Counted from the stretch's first letter, positions 1-13,133 are shown. The stretch is DNA of 13,133 bases from a virus (UHGV-1722641), one strand, 5' to 3'. The notes: generated by a model not told the origin, from the sequence alone. Numbers and translations: made by a program.

Positions 1-931
1 GTTCGGCGGCGCTGGCGCGTCCCCGGTTGAACAGTTCACCCGACCAGAACGGGTAGGCGTCGTGCGCCAGCGTGGACGGGGTGGAGAAATAGGTCGAGCG
101 CAGGTGACTCTGTGAGGCCATACCTGATGCCACCTTACGCAGTACCTGAAAATTCGGGATCCAGAAAATCTCGTCGACGTACAGGTCGCCGTTATGGCTC
201 TGCGCGGTGTTGGAGTTGGTGCCGAGAAAAATCAGTTTTGCGCCGTTATTGCCCAGGACAATCGGGTCACCGGTCAGGTCAACGTCAACCAGCCGGGCAA
301 AGGCGATGATGTATTCGCGGAACACATACGCCTGCGTTTTACTGGCCGACAGAAAAATCTGGTTATGACCGGTTTTCAGGGCGCGCAGCAGCGCCTCGCG
401 GGAAAAATAAAACGTCGCGCCAATCTGGCGGGATTTCAGGATATCGCGGATGCGGTGCTCAAGCCCGGCGCGATACCAGTGCAACTGATAGTCGAAAGAC
501 TGCTCAAAGAAAATCTGCTCCAGCTTTTCGATGGCCTCGTCACTGAAAAAATTCTTTTTCGGTTTGCGACGCCCGCCTTTGTTGCGGTTAGCGACGTTCG
601 GATTAAGGTCTGCCTCGTTGCCGGTCTGGCTGTAGCGGTTGACCCGTGCCAGTCGTTCAATCTGGCGTCCCAGCAGGTCAATTTCCTTGAAGTCACCGCC
701 GGTTTTCTGCGGTTTGATGATGAGCTGGGTCAGCCGCGCTTCCAGACTCATTTCGACACGGCTGATGGGGGCAACGCTGTCCCAGCCGTCGCGCTGTTTC
801 CAGCTCTGCACCGTCGGGCGTTTCATCTGCAACATGGCGGCAATCTGCGGCACGGAAAACCCCTGCCAGTACAGCAGCGCCGCCTGACGACGCGGGTCGT
901 GTAAAAGAGTGGTGTCTGTGGTGATGGTCAT
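1..931 (-). CDS. P: Terminase large (ATPase) subunit gpP, N-terminal ~310 codons; 3' end of the gene lies beyond the window start
   Basis: Minus-strand ORF with ATG at 931..929 stays open to position 2. Translation begins MTITTDTTLLHDPRRQAALLYWQGFSVPQIAAM and ends ...FWSGELFNRGRASAAE at the edge, matching my recollection of P2 gpP. It is missing from the ORF track only because it is truncated. It sits divergent from O, as in P2. Confidence 0.9.
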   Translation of the reverse strand, partial: MTITTDTTLLHDPRRQAALLYWQGFSVPQIAAMLQMKRPTVQSWKQRDGWDSVAPISRVEMSLEARLTQLIIKPQKTGGDFKEIDLLGRQIERLARVNRYSQTGNEADLNPNVANRNKGGRRKPKKNFFSDEAIEKLEQIFFEQSFDYQLHWYRAGLEHRIRDILKSRQIGATFYFSREALLRALKTGHNQIFLSASKTQAYVFREYIIAFARLVDVDLTGDPIVLGNNGAKLIFLGTNSNTAQSHNGDLYVDEIFWIPNFQVLRKVASGMASQSHLRSTYFSTPSTLAHDAYPFWSGELFNRGRASAAE

Positions 932-1104
932 GAATACCTCGCCGTGATGAATACACGGCAAGGCTACTGAGTCGCGCCCCGCGATTCGCTAAGGTGCTGT
1001 TGTGTCAGTGATAAGCCATCCGGGACTGATGGCGGAGGATGCGCATCGTCGGGAAACTGATGCCGACATGTGACTCCTCTAATCACTATTCAGGACTCCT
1101 GACA
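932..1104. promoter_or_regulatory. Divergent intergenic region expected to carry the activator-dependent late promoters for P (leftward) and O (rightward)
   Basis: 173-bp gap between divergent P and O starts. In P2 this region holds the Ogr-dependent late promoters, whose upstream element is TGT-N12-ACA. I find only an imperfect TGT-N12-CCA at 1001..1018, so exact sites are not assigned. Confidence 0.45.
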
Positions 1105-1959
1105 ATGGCAAAAAAAGTCTCAAAATTCTTTCGTATCGGCGTTGAGGGTGACACCTGTGACGGGCGTGTCATCAGTGCGCAGGATATTCAGGAAATGGCC
1201 GAAACCTTTGACCCGCGAGTCTATGGTTGCCGCATTAACCTGGAACATCTGCGCGGCATCCTGCCTGACGGTATTTTTAAACGTTATGGCGATGTGGCCG
1301 AACTGAAGGCCGAAAAGATTGACGATGATTCGGCGCTGAAAGGCAAATGGGCGCTGTTTGCGAAAATCACCCCGACCGATGACCTTATCGCGATGAACAA
1401 GGCCGCGCAGAAGGTCTACACCTCAATGGAAATTCAGCCGAACTTTGCCAACACCGGCAAATGTTATCTGGTGGGTCTGGCCGTCACCGATGACCCGGCA
1501 AGCCTCGGCACGGAATACCTGGAATTCTGCCGCACGGCAAAACACAACCCCCTGAACCGCTTCAAATTAAGCCCTGAAAACCTGATTTCAGTGGCAACGC
1601 CTGTTGAGCTGGAATTTGAAGACCTGCCTGAAACCGTGTTCACCGCCCTGACCGAAAAGGTGAAATCCATTTTTGGCCGCAAACAGGCCAGCGATGACGC
1701 CCGTCTGAATGACGTGCATGAAGCGGTGACCGCTGTTGCTGAACATGTGCAGGAAAAACTGAGCGCCACTGAGCAGCGCCTCGCTGAGATGGAAACCGCC
1801 TTTTCCGCACTTAAGCAGGAGGTGACTGACAGGGCGGATGAAACCAGCCAGGCATTCACCCGCCTGAAAAACAGTCTCGACCACACCGAAAGTCTGACCC
1901 AGCAGCGCCGCAGCAAGGCCACCGGCGGTGGCGGTGACGCCCTGATGACGAACTGCTGA
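1105..1959 (+). CDS. O: Capsid scaffolding protein gpO
   Basis: Translation MAKKVSKFFRIGVEGDTCDGRV... (284 aa) matches recalled P2 gpO. The track ORF starts at 1039, but the ATG at 1105 gives the P2-length product. Position is directly upstream of the capsid gene. Confidence 0.9.
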   Translation: MAKKVSKFFRIGVEGDTCDGRVISAQDIQEMAETFDPRVYGCRINLEHLRGILPDGIFKRYGDVAELKAEKIDDDSALKGKWALFAKITPTDDLIAMNKAAQKVYTSMEIQPNFANTGKCYLVGLAVTDDPASLGTEYLEFCRTAKHNPLNRFKLSPENLISVATPVELEFEDLPETVFTALTEKVKSIFGRKQASDDARLNDVHEAVTAVAEHVQEKLSATEQRLAEMETAFSALKQEVTDRADETSQAFTRLKNSLDHTESLTQQRRSKATGGGGDALMTNC

Positions 1960-2017
1960 CCGGCGTCAGTCAGTCCGGGAAAACCTTCACGATTAACCCT
2001 TAATTTCAGGAAAAACT

Positions 2018-3091
2018 ATGCGCCAGGAAACCCGCTTTAAATTTAATGCCTACCTGTCCCGTGTTGCCGAACTGAACGGCATCGACGCCGGTGATGTGTC
2101 GAAAAAATTCACCGTTGAACCGTCGGTCACCCAGACCCTGATGAACACCATGCAGGAGTCCTCTGACTTTCTGACCCGCATCAACATTGTGCCGGTCAGC
2201 GAAATGAAAGGGGAAAAAATTGGTATCGGTGTCACCGGCTCCATCGCCAGCACCACCGACACCGCCGGTGGCACCGAGCGTCAGCCGAAGGACTTCTCGA
2301 AGCTGGCGTCAAACAAGTACGAATGCGACCAGATTAACTTCGATTTTTATATCCGCTACAAAACGCTGGACCTGTGGGCGCGTTATCAGGATTTCCAGCT
2401 CCGTGTCCGTAACGCCATTATCAAACGCCAGTCCCTTGATTTCATCATGGCCGGTTTTAACGGCGTGAAGCGTGCCGAAACCTCTGACCGCAGCAGTAAT
2501 CCGATGCTGCAGGATGTGGCGGTCGGCTGGCTGCAGAAATACCGCAATGAAGCCCCGGCGCGCGTGATGAGCAAGGTTACTGACGAGGAAGGTCACACGA
2601 CCTCTGAGGTCATCCGCGTGGGTAAGGGCGGTGATTATGCCAGCCTCGATGCACTGGTGATGGATGCGACCAACAACCTGATTGAGCCGTGGTATCAGGA
2701 AGACCCTGACCTTGTGGTGATTGTGGGGCGTCAGCTACTGGCGGACAAGTATTTCCCCATCGTCAACAAGGAGCAGGACAACAGCGAAATGCTGGCCGCT
2801 GACGTCATCATCAGCCAGAAACGCATCGGTAACCTGCCGGCGGTACGCGTCCCGTACTTCCCGGCGGATGCGATGCTCATCACGAAGCTGGAAAACCTGT
2901 CCATCTACTACATGGATGACAGCCATCGCCGCGTGATTGTGGAAAACCCGAAACTCGACCGCGTGGAGAACTACGAGTCAATGAACATTGATTACGTGGT
3001 GGAAGACTACGCCGCCGGTTGTCTGGTGGAAAAAATTAAGGTCGGTGATTTCTCCACACCGGCTAAAGCGACCGCAGAGCCGGGAGCGTAA
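2018..3091 (+). CDS. N: Major capsid protein gpN
   Basis: 357-aa ORF MRQETRFKFNAYLSRVAELNGIDAGDVSKKF... with an AGGA ribosome-binding site upstream. Length and sequence match recalled P2 gpN. Confidence 0.92.
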   Translation: MRQETRFKFNAYLSRVAELNGIDAGDVSKKFTVEPSVTQTLMNTMQESSDFLTRINIVPVSEMKGEKIGIGVTGSIASTTDTAGGTERQPKDFSKLASNKYECDQINFDFYIRYKTLDLWARYQDFQLRVRNAIIKRQSLDFIMAGFNGVKRAETSDRSSNPMLQDVAVGWLQKYRNEAPARVMSKVTDEEGHTTSEVIRVGKGGDYASLDALVMDATNNLIEPWYQEDPDLVVIVGRQLLADKYFPIVNKEQDNSEMLAADVIISQKRIGNLPAVRVPYFPADAMLITKLENLSIYYMDDSHRRVIVENPKLDRVENYESMNIDYVVEDYAAGCLVEKIKVGDFSTPAKATAEPGA

Positions 3092-3094
3092 CCG

Positions 3095-3838
3095 ATGACG
3101 AGTCCCGCACAGCGCCACATGATGCGGGTCTCGGCAGCGATGACCGCGCAGCGGGAAGCCGCCCCGCTGCGACATGCAACTGTCTATGAGCAGATGCTGG
3201 TCAAGCTGGCCGCAGACCAGCGCACACTGAAAGCGATTTATTCAAAAGAGCTGAAGGCCGCGAAAAAACGCGAACTGCTGCCGTTCTGGTTGCCGTGGGT
3301 GAACGGCGTGCTGGAGCAGGGCAAAGGTGCACAGGATGACATTCTGATGACGGTCATGCTGTGGCGTCTGGATACCGGCGATATTGCCGGTGCGCTGGAG
3401 ATTGCCCGTTATGCCCTGAAGTACGGTCTGACCATGCCGGGTAAACACCGCCGCACCCCGCCGTACATGTTCACCGAGGAGGTGGCGCTCGCGGCCATGC
3501 GCGCCCACGCTGCCGGTGAGTCTGTGGATACCCGCCTGCTGACGGAGACCCTTGAACTGACCGCCACGGCTGACATGCCTGATGAAGTGCGCGCAAAGCT
3601 GCACAAAATCACCGGTCTGTTTCTGCGTGACGCTGGTGATGCCGCCGGTGCGCTGGCTCACCTGCAACGTGCGACACAGCTCGACTGTCAGGCAGGCGTC
3701 AAAAAAGAGATTGAACGACTGGAGCGGGAGCTGAAACCGAAGCCGGAGCCGCAACCCAAAGCGGCCACCCGTGCCACGCGTAAGACCCGGAGCGTGACAC
3801 CGGCAAAACGTGGACGCCCGAAAAAGAAAGCCAGTTAA
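3095..3838 (+). CDS. M: Terminase small (endonuclease) subunit gpM
   Basis: 247-aa ORF MTSPAQRHMMRVSAAMTAQREAAPL... with a basic C-terminal tail (KRGRPKKKAS). It starts 3 nt after the N stop, as in P2. Confidence 0.9.
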   Translation: MTSPAQRHMMRVSAAMTAQREAAPLRHATVYEQMLVKLAADQRTLKAIYSKELKAAKKRELLPFWLPWVNGVLEQGKGAQDDILMTVMLWRLDTGDIAGALEIARYALKYGLTMPGKHRRTPPYMFTEEVALAAMRAHAAGESVDTRLLTETLELTATADMPDEVRAKLHKITGLFLRDAGDAAGALAHLQRATQLDCQAGVKKEIERLERELKPKPEPQPKAATRATRKTRSVTPAKRGRPKKKAS

Positions 3839-3867
3839 CAACCGAATGCGCCCCGCGCCAGGGCGGC

Positions 3868-3910
3868 ACGCCGGTCAGTGACGGTGAATCACCTGACACT
3901 GCACCGGCGT
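3868..3910 (+). other. GC-rich imperfect dyad symmetry in the M-L intergenic gap
   Basis: acgccggt (3868..3875) pairs with accggcgt (3903..3910); nested cagtg/cactg (3876..3880 / 3896..3900) and ggtga/tcacc (3883..3887 / 3890..3894). No T-tract follows. Confidence 0.3.
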
Positions 3911-3937
3911 CCACCGCCCGACTTTTCAGAGGTAGTC

Positions 3938-4447
3938 ATGATGACGCTGATTATTCCGCGAAAGGAGGCTCCCGTGTCCGGTGAGGGTACGGTGGTCATC
4001 CCGCAACCGGCAGGCGACGAGCCGGTGATTAAAAACACGTTCTTTTTTCCCGATATCGACCCGAAGCGCGTCCGGGAACGTATGCGCCTTGAGCAGACCG
4101 TCGCCCCCGCCCGTCTGCGTGAGGCCATCAAGTCAGGCATGGCTGAAACGAATGCGGAGCTGTACGAGTACCGCGAACAGAAAATTGCTGCCGGTTTTAC
4201 GCGTCTGGCGGACGTCCCGGCGGACGACATCGACGGTGAAAGCATCAAAGTTTTTTACTACGAGCGCGCCGTGTGTGCGATGGCGACCGCGTCGCTTTAT
4301 GAGCGTTATCGCGGCGTGGATGCCAGTGCGAAAGGCGACAAGAAGGCTGACAGCATTGACAGCACCATTGATGAACTGTGGCGGGATATGCGCTGGGCAG
4401 TGGCGCGCATCCAGGACAAGCCGCGCTGCATCGTGAGTCAAATCTGA
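3938..4447 (+). CDS. L: Head completion/stabilisation protein gpL
   Basis: Track ORF 3878..4447; P2-like start MMTLIIPRKEAPVSGEGTVVIP at ATG 3938, with GAGG a few bases upstream, giving 169 aa. Confidence 0.88.
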   Translation: MMTLIIPRKEAPVSGEGTVVIPQPAGDEPVIKNTFFFPDIDPKRVRERMRLEQTVAPARLREAIKSGMAETNAELYEYREQKIAAGFTRLADVPADDIDGESIKVFYYERAVCAMATASLYERYRGVDASAKGDKKADSIDSTIDELWRDMRWAVARIQDKPRCIVSQI

Positions 4448-4650
4448 TGAAGACCTTTGCGCTACAGGGCGACACGCTCGACGCCATTTGTGTCCGGTAT
4501 TACGGGCGCACTGAGGGCGTGGTTGAGACCGTGCTCGCCGCAAATCCGGGACTGGCTGAACTGGGTGCGGTGCTGCCGCACGGCACCGCCGTCGAACTGC
4601 CCGACGTTCAGACCGCGCCCGTGGCTGAAACTGTCAATCTGTGGGAGTAA
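4447..4650 (+). CDS. X: Tail protein gpX
   Basis: 67-aa product MKTFALQGDTLDAICVRYYGRTEGVVETVLAANPGLAELG...; its ATG overlaps the L stop (ATGA at 4445..4449). The track ORF from 4378 is an in-frame upstream extension. Confidence 0.85.
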   Translation: MKTFALQGDTLDAICVRYYGRTEGVVETVLAANPGLAELGAVLPHGTAVELPDVQTAPVAETVNLWE

Positions 4651-4653
4651 CGC

Positions 4654-4935
4654 ATGACAGCAGAAGAAAAAAGCGTCCTGTCGCTTTTCATGATTGGGGT
4701 GCTGATTGTTGTCGGCAAGGTGCTTGCCGGTGGTGAACCCATCACCCCGCGTCTGTTTATCGGGCGCATGTTGCTCGGTGGTTTTGTCTCGATGGTTGCC
4801 GGTGTTGTTCTGGTGCAGTTTCCTGACCTGTCACTGCCTGCGGTGTGCGGTATCGGCTCCATGCTGGGTATCGCCGGTTATCAGGTGATTGAGATTGCCA
4901 TTCAGCGCCGCTTTAAGGGCAGGGGGAAACCGTAA
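4654..4935 (+). CDS. Y: Holin gpY
   Basis: 93-aa hydrophobic protein MTAEEKSVLSLFMIGVLIVVGKVLAGG... with a charged C-terminus (RRFKGRGKP), immediately upstream of the endolysin gene. Confidence 0.88.
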   Translation: MTAEEKSVLSLFMIGVLIVVGKVLAGGEPITPRLFIGRMLLGGFVSMVAGVVLVQFPDLSLPAVCGIGSMLGIAGYQVIEIAIQRRFKGRGKP

Positions 4936-5432
4936 TGCCGGTAATTAACACGCATCAGAATATCGCCGCCTTTCTCGACATGCTGGCCGTGTCCGAAGGG
5001 ACGGCGAATCATCCGCTGACGAAAAACCGGGGCTATGACGTGATAGTCACCGGACTGGACGGGAAGCCGGAAATCTTCACCGACTACAGTGACCACCCGT
5101 TCGCACATGGCCGACCGGCGAAGGTGTTTAACCGTCGCGGTGAAAAATCCACGGCCTCCGGTCGCTATCAGCAGCTTTACCTGTTCTGGCCGCATTACCG
5201 CAAACAGCTTGCCCTGCCGGATTTCAGTCCGTTGTCACAGGACAGACTTGCCATTCAGTTGATCCGCGAACGCGGTGCACTGGATGACATCCGGGCGGGA
5301 CGCATTGAGCGCGCCATTTCACGCTGTCGCAATATCTGGGCGTCCCTGCCGGGTGCCGGTTACGGTCAGCGTGAGCATTCACTGGAAAAACTGGTCACCG
5401 TCTGGCGTACCGCTGGCGGCGTACCGGCTTAA
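4935..5432 (+). CDS. K: Endolysin (lysozyme) gpK
   Basis: 165-aa ORF MPVINTHQNIAAFLDMLAVSEGTANHPLTKNRGYDVIVTG..., matching recalled P2 gpK. The start overlaps the Y stop by one base (TAATG). Confidence 0.9.
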   Translation: MPVINTHQNIAAFLDMLAVSEGTANHPLTKNRGYDVIVTGLDGKPEIFTDYSDHPFAHGRPAKVFNRRGEKSTASGRYQQLYLFWPHYRKQLALPDFSPLSQDRLAIQLIRERGALDDIRAGRIERAISRCRNIWASLPGAGYGQREHSLEKLVTVWRTAGGVPA

Positions 5433-5446
5433 ACGGAGTAAACACC

Positions 5447-5872
5447 ATGAAGAAATTATCCCTTTCACTGATGCTGAACGTGTCGCTGGCGCTGATGCTG
5501 GCACTGTCCCTGATTTACCCGCAGAGCGTGGCCGTCAGTTTTGTCGCTGCCTGGGCGATTCTGGCGACGGTTATCTGTGTGGTTGCCGGTGGTGTCGGCG
5601 TGTATGCCACTGAGTATGTGCTGGAACGCTACGGGCGGGAGCTGCCGCCGGAATCGCTGGCCGTGAAGATTGTCACGTCGCTGTTTTTGCAGCCGGTGCC
5701 GTGGCGCAGACGGGCGGCGGCTCTGGTGGTGATGGTGGCGACGTTTATCTCGCTGGTCGCTGCCGGGTGGATTTTTACCGCGCTGATTTATCTTGTGGCG
5801 TCGGTGTTCTTCCGGCTGATTCGTACGGCCTGCCGTCAGCGTTTTGAGGGGCGGGAACCATGTCAAAGCTGA
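5447..5872 (+). CDS. lysA: LysA, membrane protein of the lysis cassette (putative antiholin)
   Basis: 141-aa highly hydrophobic protein MKKLSLSLMLNVSLALMLALSLIYPQ... with several predicted transmembrane segments and a GGAG ribosome-binding site upstream. Position after K matches P2. Confidence 0.85.
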   Translation: MKKLSLSLMLNVSLALMLALSLIYPQSVAVSFVAAWAILATVICVVAGGVGVYATEYVLERYGRELPPESLAVKIVTSLFLQPVPWRRRAAALVVMVATFISLVAAGWIFTALIYLVASVFFRLIRTACRQRFEGREPCQS

Positions 5873-6285
5873 TGATTGTGCTGGTCGTGTTGTTATCGCT
5901 GGCGGTGGCGTGGCTGTTTCTGGCGAAGCATGAAAACGCCAGCCTGCGCGCCTCACTGGACAGGGCGAACAGCGTCGCCAGCGGGCAGCAGACGACCATC
6001 ACCATGCTGAAAAATCAGCTTCATGTTGCGCTCACCAGGGCAGACAAAAACGAGCTGGCGCAGGTGGCACTGCGTCAGGAACTGGAGAACGCCGCGAAGC
6101 GTGAAGCACAGCGCGAGAAAACCATCACGAGGTTACTTAATGAAAACGAGGATTTTCGCCGCTGGTACGGTGCTGACCTGCCTGATGCTGTGCGCCGGTT
6201 GCACCAGCGCCCGGCCTGCGCCGACGCCAGTGATTGTCCACAACGCCTGCCCGAAAGTGAGCCTTTGCCCGATGCCGGGCAGTGA
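5860..6285 (+). CDS. lysB: LysB, Rz-like inner-membrane spanin
   Basis: 141-aa ORF with an N-terminal transmembrane segment (MSKLMIVLVVLLSLAVAWLFLA) followed by a charged, likely coiled-coil region. Start overlaps the lysA 3' end. Confidence 0.85.
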   Translation: MSKLMIVLVVLLSLAVAWLFLAKHENASLRASLDRANSVASGQQTTITMLKNQLHVALTRADKNELAQVALRQELENAAKREAQREKTITRLLNENEDFRRWYGADLPDAVRRLHQRPACADASDCPQRLPESEPLPDAGQ

Positions 6286-6430
6286 CCCGGAGACGAACGG
6301 CGATTTAAGTGCCGATATCCGGCAGCTTGAGAACGCGCTGGCACGCTGTGCCAGCCAGGTAAAAATGATTAAACACTGTCAGGACGAAAACGATGCTCAA
6401 ACCCGACAGCCTGCGCAGGGCGCTGACTGA
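6140..6430 (+). CDS. lysC: LysC, Rz1-like outer-membrane lipoprotein spanin, in the +1 frame relative to lysB
   Basis: Internal ATG at 6140 of track ORF 6023..6430, with ACGAGG a few bases upstream. Product MKTRIFAAGTVLTCLMLCAGCTSARPAPTPV... has a signal peptide, a lipobox-like CAGC and a Pro-rich mature region. It overlaps the lysB 3' end and the R start. Confidence 0.75.
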   Translation: MKTRIFAAGTVLTCLMLCAGCTSARPAPTPVIVHNACPKVSLCPMPGSDPETNGDLSADIRQLENALARCASQVKMIKHCQDENDAQTRQPAQGAD

Positions 6431-6860
6431 TGCCGTCACGGTGCTGAAAACTAACCCCGATATGCTGCGGATATTCGTGGATAACGGGAGTATTGCCTCC
6501 ACACTGGCGGCGTCGTTGTCATTCGAAAAGCGTTACACGCTCAATGTGATTGTGACCGACTTTACCGGTGATTTTGACCTGCTCATCGTGCCGGTGCTGG
6601 CGTGGCTGCGGGAAAATCAGCCCGACATCATGACCACCGACGCAGGCCAGAAAAAGGGCTTCACGTTTTATGCGGACATCAACAATGACAGCAGCTTTGA
6701 TATCAGCATCAGCCTGATGCTGACCGAGCGCACGCTGGTCAGTGAGGTGGACGGCGCGCTGCATGTGAAGAATATCCCGGAACCTCCGCCGCCGGAGCCG
6801 GTCACCCGCCCGATGGAGCTGTATATCAATGGCGAACTGGTGAGCAAGTGGGATGAATGA
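6393..6860 (+). CDS. R: Tail completion protein gpR
   Basis: 155-aa ORF MLKPDSLRRALTDAVTVLKTNPDMLRIFVDNGS..., matching recalled P2 gpR. Confidence 0.88.
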   Translation: MLKPDSLRRALTDAVTVLKTNPDMLRIFVDNGSIASTLAASLSFEKRYTLNVIVTDFTGDFDLLIVPVLAWLRENQPDIMTTDAGQKKGFTFYADINNDSSFDISISLMLTERTLVSEVDGALHVKNIPEPPPPEPVTRPMELYINGELVSKWDE

Positions 6861-7305
6861 GTTTAAGCGTTTTGAAGACCGGCTGACCGGACTGATTGAA
6901 TCGCTGTCACCGTCAGGGCGTCGGCGACTGAGTGCCGAACTGGCGAAACGTCTGCGGCAGAGTCAGCAGCGCCGGGTGATGGCACAGAAAGCCCCGGACG
7001 GCACACCCTACGCGCCACGCCAGCAGCAGAGCGCCAGAAAAAAGACCGGTCGTGTTAAGCGAAAAATGTTTGCGAAACTTATCACCAGTCGTTTTTTGCA
7101 TATCCGCGCCAGCCCGGAACAGTCATCAATGGAGTTTTACGGCGGGAAGTCACCGAAAATCGCCAGTGTGCATCAGTTCGGTCTGTCGGAAGAAAACCGG
7201 AAAGACGGTAAGAAAATTGATTATCCGGCGCGTCCTCTGCTCGGCTTTACCGGTGAGGATGTGCAGATGATTGAAGAGATTATCCTGGCTCACCTCGACC
7301 GTTAG
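6853..7305 (+). CDS. S: Tail completion protein gpS
   Basis: 150-aa ORF MNEFKRFEDRLTGLIESLSPSGRRRLSAELAKRL...; overlaps the R 3' end by 8 nt. Confidence 0.88.
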   Translation: MNEFKRFEDRLTGLIESLSPSGRRRLSAELAKRLRQSQQRRVMAQKAPDGTPYAPRQQQSARKKTGRVKRKMFAKLITSRFLHIRASPEQSSMEFYGGKSPKIASVHQFGLSEENRKDGKKIDYPARPLLGFTGEDVQMIEEIILAHLDR

Positions 7306-7371
7306 TTGTGCCATTCCTGACACCTCATCGTCACATTGCCGCCGGTATGACCCGGCGGCATCCTTCCCGTT
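7306..7371 (+). promoter_or_regulatory. Putative late promoter region upstream of V, with TGT-N12-ACC at 7307..7324 and a GC-rich hairpin at 7337..7360
   Basis: 66-bp S-V gap. The TGT...ACC element is one mismatch from the P2 late-promoter dyad TGT-N12-ACA. A 9-bp perfect inverted repeat tgccgccgg / ccggcggca with a 6-nt loop is followed by a pyrimidine-rich tccttcccgtt. Confidence 0.35.
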
Positions 7372-8007
7372 ATGAACACTCTCGCAAATATTCAGGAACT
7401 CGCGCGCGCACTGCGCAACATGATTCGCACCGGCCTTGTCGTCGAAACCGACCTTAACGCCGGTCGCTGCCGTGTGCAGACCGGCGGCATGTGCACCGAC
7501 TGGCTTCAGTGGCTGACCCATCGCGCCGGACGTTCGCGCACATGGTGGGCACCTTCCGTGGGGGAACAGGTGCTGATTCTGGCCGTGGGCGGTGAACTCG
7601 ACACGGCGTTCGTTCTGCCGGGGATTTATTCCGGCGATAACCCCGCGCCGTCTGCGTCGGCGGATGCCCTGCATATCCGTTTCCCTGACGGGGCGGTGAT
7701 TGAGTATGAACCCGAAACCAGTGCACTCACGGTAAGCGGAATTAAAACGGCCAGCGTGACGGCTTCTGATTCTGTTACTGCCACGGTGCCGGTGGTCATG
7801 GTGAAAGCATCAACCCGCGTCACCCTGGACACACCGGAGGTGGTCTGCACCAACAGGCTGATTACCGGCACGCTGGAAGTGCAGAAGGGCGGGACGATGC
7901 GCGGCAACATTGAACACACCGGCGGTGAACTCTCATCAAACGGTAAGGTACTGCATACCCATAAACACCCCGGCGACAGCGGCGGCACAACCGGGAGTCC
8001 TCTATGA
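7372..8007 (+). CDS. V: Baseplate spike / assembly protein gpV
   Basis: 211-aa ORF MNTLANIQELARALRNMIRTGLVVETDLNAGRCRVQTGG..., matching recalled P2 gpV. Confidence 0.9.
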   Translation: MNTLANIQELARALRNMIRTGLVVETDLNAGRCRVQTGGMCTDWLQWLTHRAGRSRTWWAPSVGEQVLILAVGGELDTAFVLPGIYSGDNPAPSASADALHIRFPDGAVIEYEPETSALTVSGIKTASVTASDSVTATVPVVMVKASTRVTLDTPEVVCTNRLITGTLEVQKGGTMRGNIEHTGGELSSNGKVLHTHKHPGDSGGTTGSPL

Positions 8008-8351
8008 CAGCGCGTTATCTCGGAATGAATCGCAGTGATGGCCTGACTGTCACTGACCTTGAGCATATCAGCCAGAGTATCGGCGATATCCTGCGCACAC
8101 CGGTCGGCTCACGGGTGATGCGTCGTGATTACGGCTCGTTGCTGGCGTCAATGATTGACCAGCCGCAGACCCCGGCGCTTGAGTTGCAGATTAAGGTCGC
8201 CTGTTACATGGCGGTGCTGAAATGGGAACCCCGCGTCACCCTGTCATCCGTCACCACGGCGCGCAGCTTTGACGGGCGAATGACGGTCACGTTAACCGGC
8301 CAGCACAACGACACCGGCCAGCCACTTTCGTTAACCATCCCTGTGAGTTGA
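8004..8351 (+). CDS. W: Baseplate wedge protein gpW
   Basis: 115-aa ORF MTARYLGMNRSDGLTVTDLEHISQSIGDILRTPVGSRV...; ATGA overlap with the V stop and GGGAG upstream. Confidence 0.9.
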   Translation: MTARYLGMNRSDGLTVTDLEHISQSIGDILRTPVGSRVMRRDYGSLLASMIDQPQTPALELQIKVACYMAVLKWEPRVTLSSVTTARSFDGRMTVTLTGQHNDTGQPLSLTIPVS

Positions 8352-8355
8352 AACC

Positions 8356-9264
8356 ATGCCGATTATCGACCTGAACCAGCTACCCGCACCGGATGTGGTC
8401 GAGGAGCTGGACTTTGAAACCATTCTCGCCGAACGCAAGGCGACACTGATTTCCCTTTACCCGGAAGACCAGCAGGAGGCGGTCGCCCGTACCCTGACGC
8501 TGGAATCTGAGCCTCTCGTCAAACTGCTGGAGGAAAATGCTTATCGTGAGCTTATCTGGCGTCAGCGTGTGAATGAGGCCGCACGGGCGGTGATGCTGGC
8601 CTGTGCCGCCGGTAATGACCTTGATGTGATTGGTGCCAATTACAACACCACGCGCCTGATTATCACCCCGGCAGATGATTCGACTATCCCGCCGACACCG
8701 GCAGTGATGGAGTCTGACACCGATTATCGTCTGCGTATTCAGCAGGCGTTTGAGGGCTTAAGCGTCGCCGGGTCGGTGGGAGCCTATCAGTATCATGGTC
8801 GCAGTGCCGACGGGCGTGTCGCGGATATCTCTGTCACCAGTCCGTCTCCGGCCTGCGTCACCATCTCTGTGCTGTCACGTGAAAATAACGGTGTCGCATC
8901 CGAAGACCTGCTGGCGGTGGTGCGTAACGCCCTTAATGGCGAGGACGTCAGGCCGGTGGCCGACCGCGTGACCGTGCAGTCTGCCGCCATCGTTGAATAC
9001 CAGATAAACGCCACGCTTTACCTTTACCCTGGTCCCGAAAGCGAACCCATCCGCGCTGCCGCCGTGAAAAAACTGGAAGCGTATATCACGGCACAGCACC
9101 GGCTGGGGCGCGACATCCGTCTGTCTGCCATTTATGCCGCTTTGCATGTGGAAGGCGTGCAGCGTGTCGAACTGGCTGCACCACTGGCCGACATCGTGCT
9201 CAACAGTACGCAGGCGTCTTTCTGTACCGAATACCGCGTCGTGACCGGAGGCTCGGATGAGTGA
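8356..9264 (+). CDS. J: Baseplate protein gpJ
   Basis: 302-aa ORF MPIIDLNQLPAPDVVEELDFETILAERKATLISLYPEDQQ..., matching recalled P2 gpJ. Confidence 0.9.
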   Translation: MPIIDLNQLPAPDVVEELDFETILAERKATLISLYPEDQQEAVARTLTLESEPLVKLLEENAYRELIWRQRVNEAARAVMLACAAGNDLDVIGANYNTTRLIITPADDSTIPPTPAVMESDTDYRLRIQQAFEGLSVAGSVGAYQYHGRSADGRVADISVTSPSPACVTISVLSRENNGVASEDLLAVVRNALNGEDVRPVADRVTVQSAAIVEYQINATLYLYPGPESEPIRAAAVKKLEAYITAQHRLGRDIRLSAIYAALHVEGVQRVELAAPLADIVLNSTQASFCTEYRVVTGGSDE

Positions 9265-9787
9265 TTCGCGCCTGCTGCCGACCGGCTCATCACTGCTTGA
9301 AGTCGCTGCCGCAAAAGCCTGTGCGGAAATTGAAAAAACGCCGGTCAGTATTCGTGAGCTGTGGAACCCGGACACCTGCCCGGCAAATCTGCTGCCGTGG
9401 CTGGCGTGGGCGTTTTCGGTCGACAGGTGGGATGAAAAGTGGCCGGAAGCGACAAAACGCGCCGTTATCCGCGATGCCTATTTCATCCACTGTCATAAAG
9501 GCACTATAGGCGCAATCCGGCGTGTGGTGGAGCCGCTCGGCTATCTCATCAACGTGACGGAGTGGTGGGAAAACAGTGACCCGCCCGGCACCTTCCGGCT
9601 TGATATTGGTGTACTGGAAAGCGGTATCACAGAGGCAATGTATCAGGAAATGGAACGGCTGATTGCTGATGCCAAACCTGCAAGCCGCCACCTTATTGGC
9701 CTGAACATTACCCGGGACATTCCCGGCTACCTGTTCGCCGGTGGTGTGGCTTACGACGGCGATGTAATTACGGTTTACCCCGGATAA
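9257..9787 (+). CDS. I: Baseplate protein gpI
   Basis: 176-aa ORF MSDSRLLPTGSSLLEVAAAKACAEIEKTPVSIRELWNPD...; GGAGG upstream; overlaps the J 3' end by 8 nt. Confidence 0.9.
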   Translation: MSDSRLLPTGSSLLEVAAAKACAEIEKTPVSIRELWNPDTCPANLLPWLAWAFSVDRWDEKWPEATKRAVIRDAYFIHCHKGTIGAIRRVVEPLGYLINVTEWWENSDPPGTFRLDIGVLESGITEAMYQEMERLIADAKPASRHLIGLNITRDIPGYLFAGGVAYDGDVITVYPG

Positions 9788-9797
9788 GTGAGGAATA

Positions 9798-11795
9798 ATG
9801 AGCACAAAATTCAGAACCGTTATCACCACTGCCGGTGCAGCAAAGCTGGCAGCGGCAACCGCGCCGGGAGGGCGGAAGGTCAACATTACCACGATGGCCG
9901 TCGGGGATGGCGGTGGTAAATTGCCTGTCCCGGATGCCGGACAGACCGGGCTTATCCATGAAGTCTGGCGACATGCGCTGAACAAAATCAGCCAGGACAA
10001 ACGAAACAGTAATTATATTATCGCAGAGCTGGTTATTCCGCCGGAGGTGGGCGGTTTCTGGATGCGTGAGCTTGGCCTGTACGATGATGCGGGAACATTA
10101 ATTGCCGTGGCGAACATGGCCGAAAGTTATAAGCCAGCTCTTGCCGAAGGCTCAGGGCGTTCGCAGACCTGTCGCATGGTCATCATCGTCAGCAGTGTGG
10201 CCTCAGTGGCGCTGACCATTGACACCACAACGGTGATGGCGACGCAGGATTACGTTGATGACAAAATTGCAGAGCATGAACAGTCACGACGTCACCCGGA
10301 CGCCTCGCTGACCGCAAAAGGTTTTACTCAGTTAAGCAATGCGACCAACAGCACGTCTGAAACACTGGCCGCAACGCCGAAAGCGGTTAAGGCCGCATAT
10401 GACCTTGCTAACGGGAAATATACTGCGCAGGATGCCACCACAGCGCGAAAAGGTCTTGTCCAGCTCAGTAGTGCCACCAACAGCACGTCTGAAACGCTCG
10501 CCGCAACACCAAAAGCGGTAAAGGCAGCATATGACCTTGCTAACGGGAAATACACTGCACAGGACGCCACCACAGCGCGAAAAGGTCTTGTCCAGCTCAG
10601 TAGCGCCACCAACAGCGATTCTGAAACGCTTGCGGCAACGCCAAAGGCGGTTAAGACAGCGTATGACCTTGCTAACGGAAAATACACTGCACAGGACGCC
10701 ACCACGGCGCGGAAAGGTCTTGTTCAGCTCAATAGTGCCATCAACAGCGATTCTGAAACGCTGGCTGCAACACCAAAAGCGGTGAAGTCTGCCTATGACA
10801 ATGCTGAAAAACGTCTTCAGAAAGATCAAAATGGCGCGGATATTCCTGATAAAAGATTATTCCTGCGCAATATTGGAGCAACAAATTCAACAACCATGTC
10901 TTTTAGTGGTGGTACAGGATGGTTCAGGCTGGCAACTGTAACCATGCCACAGGCCAGTTCCGTGGTTTACATAAGTCTGATTGGTGGTGCTGGATATAAT
11001 GTTAACTCCCCTATGCAGGCTGGTATATCTGAACTTGTTCTTCGTGCGGGAAATGGAAATCCAAAAGGTCTTACTGGTGCGTTATGGCGACGGACATCGG
11101 TTGGATTTACTAATTTTGCATGGGTGAATACATCCGGTGATACCTATGATGTTTATGTTGAAATAGGTAATTACGCCACAGGTGTTAATATTCAGTGGGA
11201 TTATACCAGTAACGCCAGCGTAACGATTCATACATCACCAACTTATACAGCGAATAAACCAACAGGTCTTACAGATGGAACTGTATATGTAATTTACAGT
11301 TCGCACATTAAACCGACTGCTGCTGATGTTGGGGCGTTGTCATTATCTGGAGGTCAATTGAATGGTGCACTGGGCATCGGAACATCCAGTGTTCTTGGTG
11401 GTAACTCAATTGTTTTGGGTGATAATGACACGGGCTTTAAACAAAATGGTGACGGTAATCTGGATGTTTATGCTAATAACGTTCATGTTATGCGCTTTGT
11501 CTCCGGTAGCATTCAAAGTAATAAAACCATAAATATTACGGGTCGTGTTAATCCCACAGATTACGGTAACTTTGATTCCCGCTATGTCCGGGATATCCGG
11601 CTTGGTGGTGCTGCCACATACAAACCTGCGAACAATGGCATGACATGGACACATCAGGCACCGTCCGGGTGTGTATATTCCGGCATTATTATTCAGGATA
11701 CCGGCTCAAACTCTGCCGATAACATTGGTGGCGTATATTACAGACCGGTGCAGAAATACATTAACGGGACATGGTATAACGTGGCGCAGGTATAA
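9798..11795 (+). CDS. H: Tail fiber protein gpH, mosaic: P2-like N-terminus, expanded internal repeats, divergent low-GC C-terminal receptor-binding region
   Basis: 665-aa ORF with GTGAGGA upstream. N-terminus MSTKFRTVITTAGAAKLAAATAPG... resembles P2 gpH; the middle holds about 3.7 tandem 44-aa repeats (KGLVQLSSATNSTSETLAATPKAVKAAYDLANGKYTAQDATTAR). The C-terminal half is low GC but keeps the conserved patch VLGDNDTGFKQNGDGNLDVYAN and the C-terminal QKYINGTWYNVAQV. Confidence 0.88.
   Translation: MSTKFRTVITTAGAAKLAAATAPGGRKVNITTMAVGDGGGKLPVPDAGQTGLIHEVWRHALNKISQDKRNSNYIIAELVIPPEVGGFWMRELGLYDDAGTLIAVANMAESYKPALAEGSGRSQTCRMVIIVSSVASVALTIDTTTVMATQDYVDDKIAEHEQSRRHPDASLTAKGFTQLSNATNSTSETLAATPKAVKAAYDLANGKYTAQDATTARKGLVQLSSATNSTSETLAATPKAVKAAYDLANGKYTAQDATTARKGLVQLSSATNSDSETLAATPKAVKTAYDLANGKYTAQDATTARKGLVQLNSAINSDSETLAATPKAVKSAYDNAEKRLQKDQNGADIPDKRLFLRNIGATNSTTMSFSGGTGWFRLATVTMPQASSVVYISLIGGAGYNVNSPMQAGISELVLRAGNGNPKGLTGALWRRTSVGFTNFAWVNTSGDTYDVYVEIGNYATGVNIQWDYTSNASVTIHTSPTYTANKPTGLTDGTVYVIYSSHIKPTAADVGALSLSGGQLNGALGIGTSSVLGGNSIVLGDNDTGFKQNGDGNLDVYANNVHVMRFVSGSIQSNKTINITGRVNPTDYGNFDSRYVRDIRLGGAATYKPANNGMTWTHQAPSGCVYSGIIIQDTGSNSADNIGGVYYRPVQKYINGTWYNVAQV
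10317..10803 (+). repeat. Tandem 132-bp direct repeats (about 3.7 copies) inside gpH, encoding a 44-aa fiber repeat
   Basis: Unit boundaries read directly at 10317, 10449, 10581 and 10713, in frame with H. Units differ at scattered positions, mostly third-codon, but are clearly the same sequence. The minus-strand track ORFs 10328..10705 and 10332..10829 are mirror artefacts of this repeat. Confidence 0.9.
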
Positions 11796-11798
11796 TTT

Positions 11799-12326
11799 AT
11801 GCAGCATTTGATAAATATAACGGCGGGTAATCCAAAAACGGTTGAACAATATCAATTGACAAAGGACTTTGATGTTGTCTGGTTTTTTTCAGAAGATGGT
11901 AAGAACTGGTACGAAGAACAAAAGTATTTTGCTGATGACACGATAAAAATAGCGTACGACAAAGATAATATTATCCGCTATGTGGAAAAGGATGTGACAG
12001 CTATCAGACCGGATGGATTAAGTGTTGTTGAAGTGGCGGATATTACTGCTAACCGACGGGCGGACATTTCAGGGGGCTGGATGTTTAAGGACGGCAAAGT
12101 GATTAAACGCATTTATACGGCAGAGGAATTGCAGCAGCAGGCAGAAATTCGGAAAGCCAGACTTCTTGCAGATGCTGAATCCGTGATTTTGCCGCTGGAG
12201 CGCGCGGTCAGACTGAACATGGCAACAGATGAGGAGCGTAGCCGACTGGAAGCATGGGAACGCTACAGCGTTCTGGTCAGTCGTGTGGATCCTGCAAATC
12301 CTGAATGGCCGGAAATGCCGCAATAA
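11799..12326 (+). CDS. G: Tail fiber assembly chaperone gpG
   Basis: 175-aa ORF starting 3 nt after the H stop. The C-terminal part (...[37 protein letters not shown]...EWPEMPQ) is the conserved fiber-assembly domain; the N-terminal half is low GC like the 3' half of H. Confidence 0.85.
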
Positions 12327-12595
12327 GTTGTATGAACTCTGGTGTGAGCTTACATATCTATGGCACAGAGTAAAGCCTAATCTGACAGTCCGCTCTGTGC
12401 CAGAAGCGGACGTTGCGGGACGTCAGATATCTAAAAAAACTAATGGTCCGCTTGGATAGATACTTACACAGGATGCAATAAAGAGTTTCTATTTCTTTGT
12501 GGTAGCAAACTTTGATTTCTGAAGGATAATACCTCCAATAAGTTGAAATCACATATATCGCTAAAGACTCTATACAACAACCAAGAGAGACCGCA
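12327..12595 (+). promoter_or_regulatory. AT-rich non-coding spacer upstream of the cargo ORF; likely carries its own promoter
   Basis: 269 bp with no convincing ORF, a strong composition drop relative to the phage core, a -10-like GATAAT at 12525..12530 and TTGAAA at 12543..12548. I could not pair a convincing -35/-10 by eye. Confidence 0.3.
12361..12402 (+). other. 10-bp perfect inverted repeat (stem-loop) just downstream of the G stop, at the core/cargo boundary
   Basis: tggcacagag (12361..12370) and ctctgtgcca (12393..12402) with a 22-nt loop; followed by a GGACGT direct repeat (12408..12413 and 12418..12423), the palindrome AGATATCT (12425..12432) and an A7 run. No U-tract, so not a classical intrinsic terminator. 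Confidence 0.3.
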
Positions 12596-13133
12596 ATGGA
12601 TAGTGTCAGTAGTGTTGAGCGTTTAAGAACAAAAGCTTTTTATCAGTTGCTTGTGGATAGGCTTGGAACTGAGGCCTGGGCTGCTCGCAAAGCTGCATAT
12701 TTCAAGCGCATAAGAGAGAAGGAGGCTAAGTTTAACATCAATCTGCCGATAGAGCCCCAGCTCTTCATACCAGCAGAAGATGACATCGACTGGTACATTC
12801 TGGCGTCGTATCTGTCTCATGATTTTCCATATAGTGATGCTACTTACAGCAGCAGACGTATCTACCCCTATGCTATGGCCATCGGAGCTGTTGCAGACCA
12901 GCTTCGCAAAGTCCCATACGTCGATGATGTTCTGGACAAAATGCTAGCAAATAACAATAAACCAGAAACTCAAATTTTTGAGCTGCTGACGGCATCGTTC
13001 TACCTAAAGAACGGCTATGAGGTTGCCTTCATCCCAGAAAGCAGCATTGTTTGGCCCGATGGAAAGACCAAAAAATCACCGGATATGCTTGTCAAGTTAG
13101 GTGATCTGGAGTTCTACGTTGAGTGCAAAAGGT
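12596..13133 (+). CDS. Hypothetical cargo protein, 5'-partial view (179 codons, open to window end); possible PD-(D/E)xK-like nuclease motif; candidate accessory/defence gene
   Basis: ATG at 12596 preceded by a purine-rich stretch (AGAGAGA) 6 nt upstream; no stop before 13133. The line 12601..12660 counts 22/60 GC against 41/60 for the first 60 bases of the window. Translation MDSVSSVERLRTKAFYQLLVDRLG...ETQIFELLTASFYLKNGYEVAFIPESSIVWPDGKTKKSPDMLVKLGDLEFYVECKR has an acidic helix, PD, then E-C-K 14 residues later. No resemblance to any P2 structural protein I know. Confidence 0.6.
   Translation, partial: MDSVSSVERLRTKAFYQLLVDRLGTEAWAARKAAYFKRIREKEAKFNINLPIEPQLFIPAEDDIDWYILASYLSHDFPYSDATYSSRRIYPYAMAIGAVADQLRKVPYVDDVLDKMLANNNKPETQIFELLTASFYLKNGYEVAFIPESSIVWPDGKTKKSPDMLVKLGDLEFYVECKR

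Follow-up and report, generated by a model that had tools for sequence, protein, structure and literature searches.

A hairpin-bounded cassette in the G/FI hotspot of a P2-type virus carries a candidate single-gene anti-phage nuclease

What does a P2-type virus keep in the variable slot between its tail genes G and FI, and what might that cargo be for? We take up this question for the virus UHGV-1722641, of which one stretch of 13,133 nt (the window) was analyzed. The window is a P2-type late region, with capsid genes towards one end and H (9798-11795) and G towards the other, in the late-operon order V-W-J-I-H-G, and it closes on a new open reading frame (ORF) that lies on the same strand as these genes. 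The frame starts with the ATG at 12596, 269 nt past the G stop, and stays open to the window end for 179 codons (12596-13132). These codons encode the first part of a 461-residue protein of an unnamed three-domain PD-(D/E)xK family, and the end of the window covers the left-hand part of a discrete cassette, about 1.73 kb long, that sits as cargo in the P2 G/FI (Z/fun) hotspot. On a modest balance of the sequence evidence, we regard the gene as a candidate autonomous single-gene anti-phage nuclease, carried as prophage cargo.

The ORF is judged to be a real gene because all 179 of its residues agree with the first 179 of a 461-residue protein of Escherichia phage 899, and because 132 full-length homologues with at least 53% identity are found in Enterobacterales, Pseudomonas, Aeromonas, Stenotrophomonas, Comamonas and others. 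For the other 282 codons we depend on relatives. The prophage of E. coli HCP5S3_I4 is 97.8% identical to the window over positions 11700-13133, and its copy of the ORF is annotated as a 461-residue "hypothetical protein", while G is annotated as "tail fibre assembly protein" both there and in P2. In this prophage the sheath gene FI begins 326 nt past the stop of the 461-codon gene, so that the island holds a single gene. Escherichia phage 899 and Yersinia phage GMG73 have, past this gene, a further one for a 348-residue DUF3800 protein and only then FI. Over positions 12415-13133 the window differs by 2 nt from the one-gene relative and by 2 nt from the two-gene relative.

In both closest relatives the cargo thus lies between G and FI, where P2 has Z/fun. 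Vassallo et al. (2022; PMC9519451) described a second defence-enriched locus of P2 that contains fun, and the iLund4u preprint (10.1101/2024.10.15.618418) likewise describes the G/FI hotspot; in these two sources the slot is reported to house fun and several validated PD systems. According to Moura de Sousa et al. (2026; PMC13586616), 16% of the defence systems of P2 lie in the tail-gene hotspot. The Z/fun hotspot itself is therefore already known, and what is unnamed is the protein family.

An earlier reading of the window from its sequence alone, the original prediction, had placed the G stop at 12326, a 269-nt spacer behind it and an ORF start at 12596, with the frame open at the window end, and these coordinates are exact. 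It had also held that the ORF is unlike any P2 morphogenetic protein, and indeed we find no similarity to any protein encoded upstream in the window; that the site is the variable Z/fun site, which agrees with the G-FI position in relatives, with the published hotspot and with the 43 classes that we find among 59 intervals (see below); and that the protein is unfamiliar, which is correct: Pfam, NCBIfam and PADLOC give no above-threshold match, its PHROG is unannotated and all source records call it "hypothetical". Its proposal to delimit the island by extending the sequence to FI could be followed through relatives, with a divided outcome: FI comes directly next in one prophage and after the second, DUF3800 gene in phage 899. 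It had further named, as grounds for dropping the idea, an FI gene following directly together with a structural or Z/fun-type product; FI does follow directly in one relative, but the protein is neither structural nor Z/fun-like.

Where does the cargo begin and end? The first 88 nt past G (12327-12414) are conserved with P2, and homology to P2 is lost at about 12414-12417. At this border lies a 24-nt hairpin, which we call A, and a related 24-nt hairpin B, GTCCGCT-CCTCGCTCAA-AGCAGAC, is found about 187 nt upstream of FI in the relatives; the stem GTCCGCT/AGCGGAC is common to both. Reading from left to right, hairpin A is followed by a 184-nt AT-rich leader, the 461-codon gene, a 108-nt tail and hairpin B, which together make up the cassette. 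The cassette is framed by a 9-nt backbone half-site on its left and, in the relatives, by the reverse complement of that half-site, TGTCAGATT, directly on its right, so that AATCTGACA and TGTCAGATT without the cargo would make a perfect 18-bp palindrome. Klebsiella F-type and IncFIB plasmids carry the full span of A to B, outermost bases included (1728 bp), at 98.7% identity, and the similarity is lost where the hairpins end (to within 2 nt for the IncFIB plasmids). Because homology stops there, we conclude that the cassette moves as a discrete unit.

We turn to 59 P2-type loci anchored on the end of G and the start of FI. The anchored intervals range from 1115 to 6164 bp and fall into 43 classes by length and hairpin pattern. 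An A-type hairpin is detected at the left of 37 of them, and by the strict pattern 43 of the 59 have one or both hairpins, in every case with A towards G and B towards FI. The hairpins are concentrated in the slot: we count 65 in 131 kb of G-FI intervals vs a single one in 528 kb of P2-type sequence outside them. An apparent inversion of cargo between the arms in some phages was rejected as an artefact of orientation, since the pattern used for the left arm also fits the right arm when that arm is reverse-complemented. The two cargo genes of phage 899 have between them hairpin B, an 18-nt linker and hairpin A, and because this composite lies between them each gene looks like a cassette of its own. 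The second of these cassettes (8607-9653 in the phage 899 locus, GC content 0.364) encodes the 348-residue DUF3800 protein (Pfam E 1.4e-5), which has a weak PADLOC match to the candidate system PDC-M04A (E 7e-4).

Two further observations concern hairpin A and the island. The backbone segment GGCACAGAG (12362-12370) is complementary to CTCTGTGCC (12394-12402), i.e., to the end of the 5' stem of hairpin A plus loop, and this alternative 9-bp pairing, which is nearly conserved in P2 (one mismatch), competes with the hairpin; it is not a canonical terminator because no T-run follows it. An Rfam scan of the phage 899 island returned nothing relevant.

We next consider what the cassette encodes. 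The AlphaFold2 model (pLDDT, the predicted local distance difference test score, 85.8; pTM, the predicted template modelling score, 0.86) has three parts: an all-helical N-terminal domain, a central domain at about residues 121-257 with the alpha-beta-beta-beta-alpha-beta core fold, and a C-terminal alpha/beta domain at about residues 258-461 that is recognized by no library. Because the model is confident and the residues E129, D163, E176 and K178 are invariant, we assign the central domain to the PD-(D/E)xK nucleases. Specifically, E129, P162-D163 and E176-C177-K178 are invariant in an alignment of close homologues (A1), and E129, D163, E176 and K178 are still invariant in an alignment of distant ones (A4), down to about 20% identity. 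The window itself shows the full N-terminal domain together with E129, PD163 and E176-x-K178, its last three codons belonging to the region of the ExK motif. Conservation is not confined to the nuclease core: W28, E190, Q351, H361 and E415 are also invariant from close homologues to about 20% identity, R31, D62, Y67, R88 and P91 of the N-terminal domain are nearly invariant across the superfamily in both alignments, and the three domains are evenly conserved. On the strength of sequence and model, the protein is probably an active nuclease.

A Foldseek search against the PDB and BFVD gave no whole-chain match at E ≤ 1e-3, and the best local matches include the PD-(D/E)xK homing endonuclease I-Ssp6803I (probability 0.89); a PDB search with the family sequence profile gave no match at E ≤ 10. 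The idea that the C-terminal domain is a degenerate second nuclease or an internal duplication was discarded (hhalign between the domains, probability <1%), as was a sub-threshold resemblance of residues 5-142 to AAA_21/AbiEii (E 0.04-0.13), a region that is all-helical in the model and whose sequence has no Walker A motif.

At the level of sequence, nothing in Pfam matches the 461-residue protein above threshold, the best being AHJR-like at residues 133-204 with 16.5 bits vs a cut-off of 26.1, and NCBIfam gives no match. In PHROGs it matches one unannotated family. Distant members give sub-threshold matches to Hjc (17.0 vs 21.1 bits), Mrr_cat (16.4 vs 21), NERD or AHJR-like in the same segment. 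An exhaustive profile search at E ≤ 1e-3 finds 504 representatives of clusters formed at 50% identity, nearly all 430-480 residues long and aligned end to end, and the family extends full-length, to about 20% identity, through the Gammaproteobacteria and into at least one betaproteobacterium (Collimonas). The gene is rare: 42 of 5426 complete E. coli genomes have it, all copies being intact and at least 99% identical, and none of 56 sampled G-FI intervals from viral contigs encodes the protein.

How, then, does the protein compare with systems that are already known? The archaeal Holliday-junction-resolvase-like and Mrr-type catalytic domains of restriction endonucleases, namely the families AHJR-like (PF18743), Hjc (PF01870), Mrr_cat (PF04471) and NERD (PF08378), share its fold and the E...PD...ExK motif and provide the best sequence-level resemblance, at residues 133-204, though below their curated cut-offs (11.8-17 vs 21-26 bits); they are domains of about 100-120 residues, and the core of the present protein is part of a conserved three-domain chain of 461 residues. 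As for Shedu (SduA, DUF4263), even at E ≤ 1 there is no DUF4263 match in Pfam, the Shedu nuclease is C-terminal rather than central and the present protein has an extra C-terminal domain of about 200 residues, and the structural match to Shedu is no better than that given by any PD-(D/E)xK core. The Z/fun locus of P2 occupies the same slot and is likewise variable among relatives, but the sequences are dissimilar (a BLASTP comparison with the two P2 proteins yielded no match below E = 3), and the 461-codon gene lies on the late-operon strand while the P2 genes lie on the opposite one. None of the PD systems has a PADLOC model that matches the protein.

A functional selection in E. coli by Vassallo et al. 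(2022; PMC9519451) yielded five single-protein defence systems in which a distant PD-(D/E)xK DNase motif is all that can be recognized, several of them in P2 prophages. An example of such orphan proteins is PD-T4-8, with a Shedu-like central domain. Like these orphan DNase-only proteins, the present one is a single gene on mobile elements without a methyltransferase partner, with a short, motif-level resemblance to the restriction-endonuclease fold and with large parts that contain no recognizable domain. It differs in having no homology to any of them at the level of hidden Markov models (PADLOC, E ≤ 1), and in being a candidate defender.

The genomic neighbourhoods of the homologues bear on the same point. 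In P. aeruginosa (GCA_900706875.1, 4135-10773 in locus L004) a 74%-identical homologue lies in an integrase-bounded island beside the rml dTDP-rhamnose genes, with a Lamassu-like pair (MC3, LmuB_C) upstream and a 114-residue ORF and AbiTii downstream of the homologue. A Pantoea homologue stands directly past the tail genes of a non-P2-like prophage; one in Stutzerimonas is accompanied by a small integrase, a PIN protein and an SMC-like ATPase; one in Stenotrophomonas adjoins a type IIG restriction-modification gene; and in the Klebsiella F-type plasmid the gene lies between a TacA/TacT toxin-antitoxin pair and other cargo. The 461-codon gene is also carried by Klebsiella IncFIB plasmids of about 111 kb. 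Among 134 neighbours in 14 species-representative loci, located with the close alignment A1 since the distant alignment A4 was too divergent for this search, 6 are phage-type integrases, and PADLOC matches include LmuB, CapP/CapH, mad3, AriA, RmrA/RmrT, AbiLi, PDC-M68A and PDC-S50. This pattern is typical of defence islands. The neighbours drawn from seven genomic contexts are mutually non-homologous and include no conserved partner gene. Methyltransferases are present in two contexts, but not as conserved partners; no cognate methyltransferase stands beside the nuclease, which is the sole gene between G and FI in HCP5S3_I4. Because the neighbours in the seven contexts share no homology, the nuclease is predicted to be autonomous.

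These observations suggest the following mechanism. A prophage would carry the anti-phage nuclease for the benefit of its host and express it from the leader during lysogeny, and the domains that flank the nuclease may keep it inactive or confer its specificity. Upon infection the nuclease would cut the DNA of the invader: foreign DNA might be its direct target (type IV-restriction-like or Shedu-like), or the cleavage might be indiscriminate and abortive. The leader contains weak sigma-70-like hexamers (GTAGCA-17-GATAAT, 12502-12530) and a purine-rich AGAGAG (12585-12590) before the ATG, and because it travels with the gene into plasmids we infer that it carries the gene's own expression signals. 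The nuclease domain is moreover of a kind typical of defence effectors. The original prediction had chosen this gene as the best candidate for an accessory or defence function, and the results support it as a plausible defence candidate.

Several results weigh against an anti-phage role. A strict scan for promoters and terminators found nothing in the leader or past G, and a relaxed scan of the leader gave at best 8/12 matches to sigma-70 and no convincing promoter. The gene is co-oriented with the late operon, unlike Z/fun of P2, which would allow a late lytic function. The full-length protein matches none of the families of PADLOC-DB v2.0.0 at E ≤ 1, a collection that includes the PD-T4, PD-T7 and PD-lambda systems, Shedu, Hachiman, Lamassu and the PDC and HEC candidates, and ten distant members gave only two matches, both at chance level (E 0.015 and 0.048). 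The survey of 134 neighbours has no matched control, and the AlphaFold2 model was built on a 98%-identical representative (P0001) rather than on the window sequence.

Some of these points are what one would expect of the main rival, a late-expressed nuclease that benefits the phage itself by degrading host or competitor DNA, or by countering a host defence, during the lytic growth of P2. Such a gene would share the orientation of V-W-J-I-H-G, as this one does and as Z/fun does not, and it could be read from the late operon, since a canonical terminator is missing between G and the ORF and the leader has no strong promoter. However, the 98.7%-identical cassette sits in Klebsiella plasmids that have no late operon upstream, homologues occur in integrase and defence islands that are not of phage origin, and the leader moves with the gene. 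We therefore consider a late phage-benefit function unlikely, and the readings that follow less likely still.

A selfish endonuclease, of a homing type or one that mobilizes its cassette by cutting at or near the hairpins, would spread its own cassette and would account for the exact boundaries found in three replicon types; I-Ssp6803I, as noted, is among the best local structural matches. This explanation is nonetheless improbable. In the other G-FI intervals with detected hairpins (about two-thirds of the 59), these same A and B enclose cargo of unrelated kinds; the protein is encoded in none of the 56 intervals sampled from viral contigs, and homologues outside the Enterobacterales have no such hairpins. 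There is also a better candidate for the mover, namely a separate tyrosine recombinase of 200 residues.

This recombinase consists of a catalytic domain only and is found 2-3 kb from composite sites of the B-18 nt-A type in three inspected loci: a Lelliottia plasmid, where at least seven such sites form an array between small genes, an island of E. coli Nissle and a lambdoid prophage of E. coli YJ1, the copies being 95-96% identical. A homologue with 57% identity lies near the nuclease homologue in Stutzerimonas. The composite matches 391 Enterobacterales plasmids and occurs in 1116 of 5426 E. coli genomes, with 1-3 copies each, and the recombinase gene occurs in 863 of the 5426. On the other hand, the recombinase was not seen within about 8-10 kb of the sites in three other inspected loci, it scores only 58 bits against a cut-off of 220 with the Xer/integron-integrase model, and the integron attC core boxes (RYYYAAC/GTTRRRY) are not visible in the composite-site sequences. 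Because the recombinase was not seen near the sites at three loci and the sites lack attC boxes, we put forward an integron-like exchange system that moves the hairpin cassettes as a hypothesis. The likeness to integron cassettes lies in discrete cargo bounded by imperfect palindromes, in arrays of B-18 nt-A, in a nearby tyrosine recombinase and in defence-like cargo, and defence cassettes do occur in sedentary chromosomal integrons (preprint 10.1101/2024.07.02.601686). The differences are that the boundary falls between two hairpins and not inside an R' box, that no core sites are visible, and that the 200-residue catalytic-domain-only recombinase is far below the Xer and IntI cut-offs. Repetitive extragenic palindromic (REP) units and bacterial interspersed mosaic elements (BIMEs) are a further comparison; in contrast to REP elements, the composites are few, with 1-3 copies per E. 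coli genome.

It is more improbable again that the protein is the toxin of an addiction module, similar to a toxin-antitoxin system, that stabilizes its carrier and plays no part in defence against phages. Its nuclease fold, its place on mobile elements and the adjoining TacA/TacT pair in the Klebsiella F-type plasmid could be read in this way, but no small partner or antitoxin gene is conserved in any context, the gene stands alone between G and FI in HCP5S3_I4, and 461 residues with three co-conserved domains are unlike typical toxins. Finally, the rarity of the gene in E. coli genomes and viral-contig intervals might suggest inert or decaying cargo without a current function, which we give almost no weight against full-length and even conservation over three domains, catalytic residues invariant to about 20% identity across Gammaproteobacteria and Collimonas, and 42 intact, nearly identical E. 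coli copies.

The original prediction had seen a sharp fall in GC (guanine plus cytosine) content at 12326 and a cargo island that starts at 12327, and neither stands: the fall begins within H near 10700, the visible ORF is not GC-poorer than G, and 12327-12414 is conserved with P2, so that the cargo begins only at about 12388-12415. The AT-rich spacer survives in part, since the cargo-specific leader is distinctly AT-rich, but the drop is not located at 12326. The composition argument for a cargo island is accordingly weak. As a separate matter, the GC content of the tail fibre gene H drops near 10700, from about 0.55 to about 0.44, and remains low as far as the end of G (10700-12326), and because of this the receptor-binding end of H together with G looks like a separately acquired module beside the cargo hotspot.

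Table 1. Coordinates of the features discussed. Positions refer to the window unless a locus (our L labels) is given.
Feature	Location	Strand	Remarks
Backbone before H	1-9797		GC 0.577
H, N-terminal part	9798-10700		GC 0.549
H, C-terminal part	10701-11795		GC 0.441
G, tail fibre assembly gene, 175 aa	11799-12326	+	ORF list; last conserved late gene, left border of hotspot; GC 0.455
Whole spacer	12327-12595		GC 0.405
Backbone after G, not cargo	12327-12378	.	Alignment with P2, phage 899 and HCP5S3_I4; P2-conserved
A/B hairpins and half-sites, window	12379-12411		
Left backbone half-site AATCTGACA	12379-12387	+	Inverted-repeat search
Hairpin A, GTCCGCT-CTGTGCCAGA-AGCGGAC	12388-12411	+	Pattern scan; 7-bp stem, 10-nt loop; left end of cassette
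Cassette leader	12412-12595	+	Shared GTTGC, then cargo-specific, AT-rich
Cargo-specific leader, 181 nt	12415-12595		GC 0.37
Visible ORF	12596-13132	+	GC 0.452
All-helical N-terminal domain, residues 1-120	12596-12955	+	Translation; AlphaFold2, pLDDT 80-97
PD-(D/E)xK nuclease domain (predicted), first half, codons 121-179	12956-13133	+	
E129	12980-12982		First-helix Glu
P162-D163	13079-13084		Second-strand PD
E176	13121-13123		Third-strand ExK
K178	13127-13129		Third-strand ExK
A/B hairpins and half-sites, HCP5S3_I4	L001 9668-9702, 11379-11413		
A/B hairpins and half-sites, phage 899	L002 6725-6760, 8436-8505, 9912-9947		
A/B hairpins and half-sites, L003	L003 4182-4215, 5784-5817		
A-to-B cassette, Klebsiella F-type plasmid	L010/L151 9793-11520		Near TraM/TraJ/TraY and an anti-restriction gene
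A-to-B cassette, IncFIB Klebsiella plasmids, about 111 kb	L153 8999-10726		
Recombinase / composite sites	L154 5066-5668, 8003-14823		
Recombinase / composite sites	L156 3343-3945, 6004-6069		
Recombinase / composite sites	L157 8047-8649, 6001-6066		
Recombinase / composite sites	L009 3105-3725		

What would these results mean for the biology of P2-type phages and their hosts? We can combine the two lines of argument into a joint reading, which we offer as a tentative and rather doubtful one: that the 461-residue protein founds a new family of single-protein anti-phage nucleases, and that the cargo of the G/FI slot comes in integron-like cassettes. The family would then comprise about 500 clusters at 50% identity, and its conserved N- and C-terminal domains would serve for sensing or regulation in a way not seen before. 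The cargo would consist of units bounded by A and B and arrayed by attC-like or BIME-like B-18 nt-A sites, its insertion would not be haphazard, and the widespread 200-residue tyrosine recombinase may move the cassettes. If neither part holds, we are left with one more hypothetical accessory gene in a known hotspot.

If the defence function is true, it adds to the single-gene nuclease defences an unnamed and fairly widespread family, spread over Enterobacterales, Pseudomonas, Aeromonas, Stenotrophomonas and Collimonas. The question how orphan nucleases discriminate between phage and self was raised explicitly by Vassallo et al. (PMC9519451), and the two conserved, unclassified domains that flank the nuclease are obvious places to seek such discrimination. 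Recent work has stressed that the defence loci of P2 and P4 are swapped extremely fast, without giving a mechanism. If the cassette model is true, the hairpin ends, the tandem composites and the small tyrosine recombinase together provide a concrete and testable mechanism for this swapping, and the cassettes would link phage hotspots to the cassette arrays of plasmids and chromosomes.

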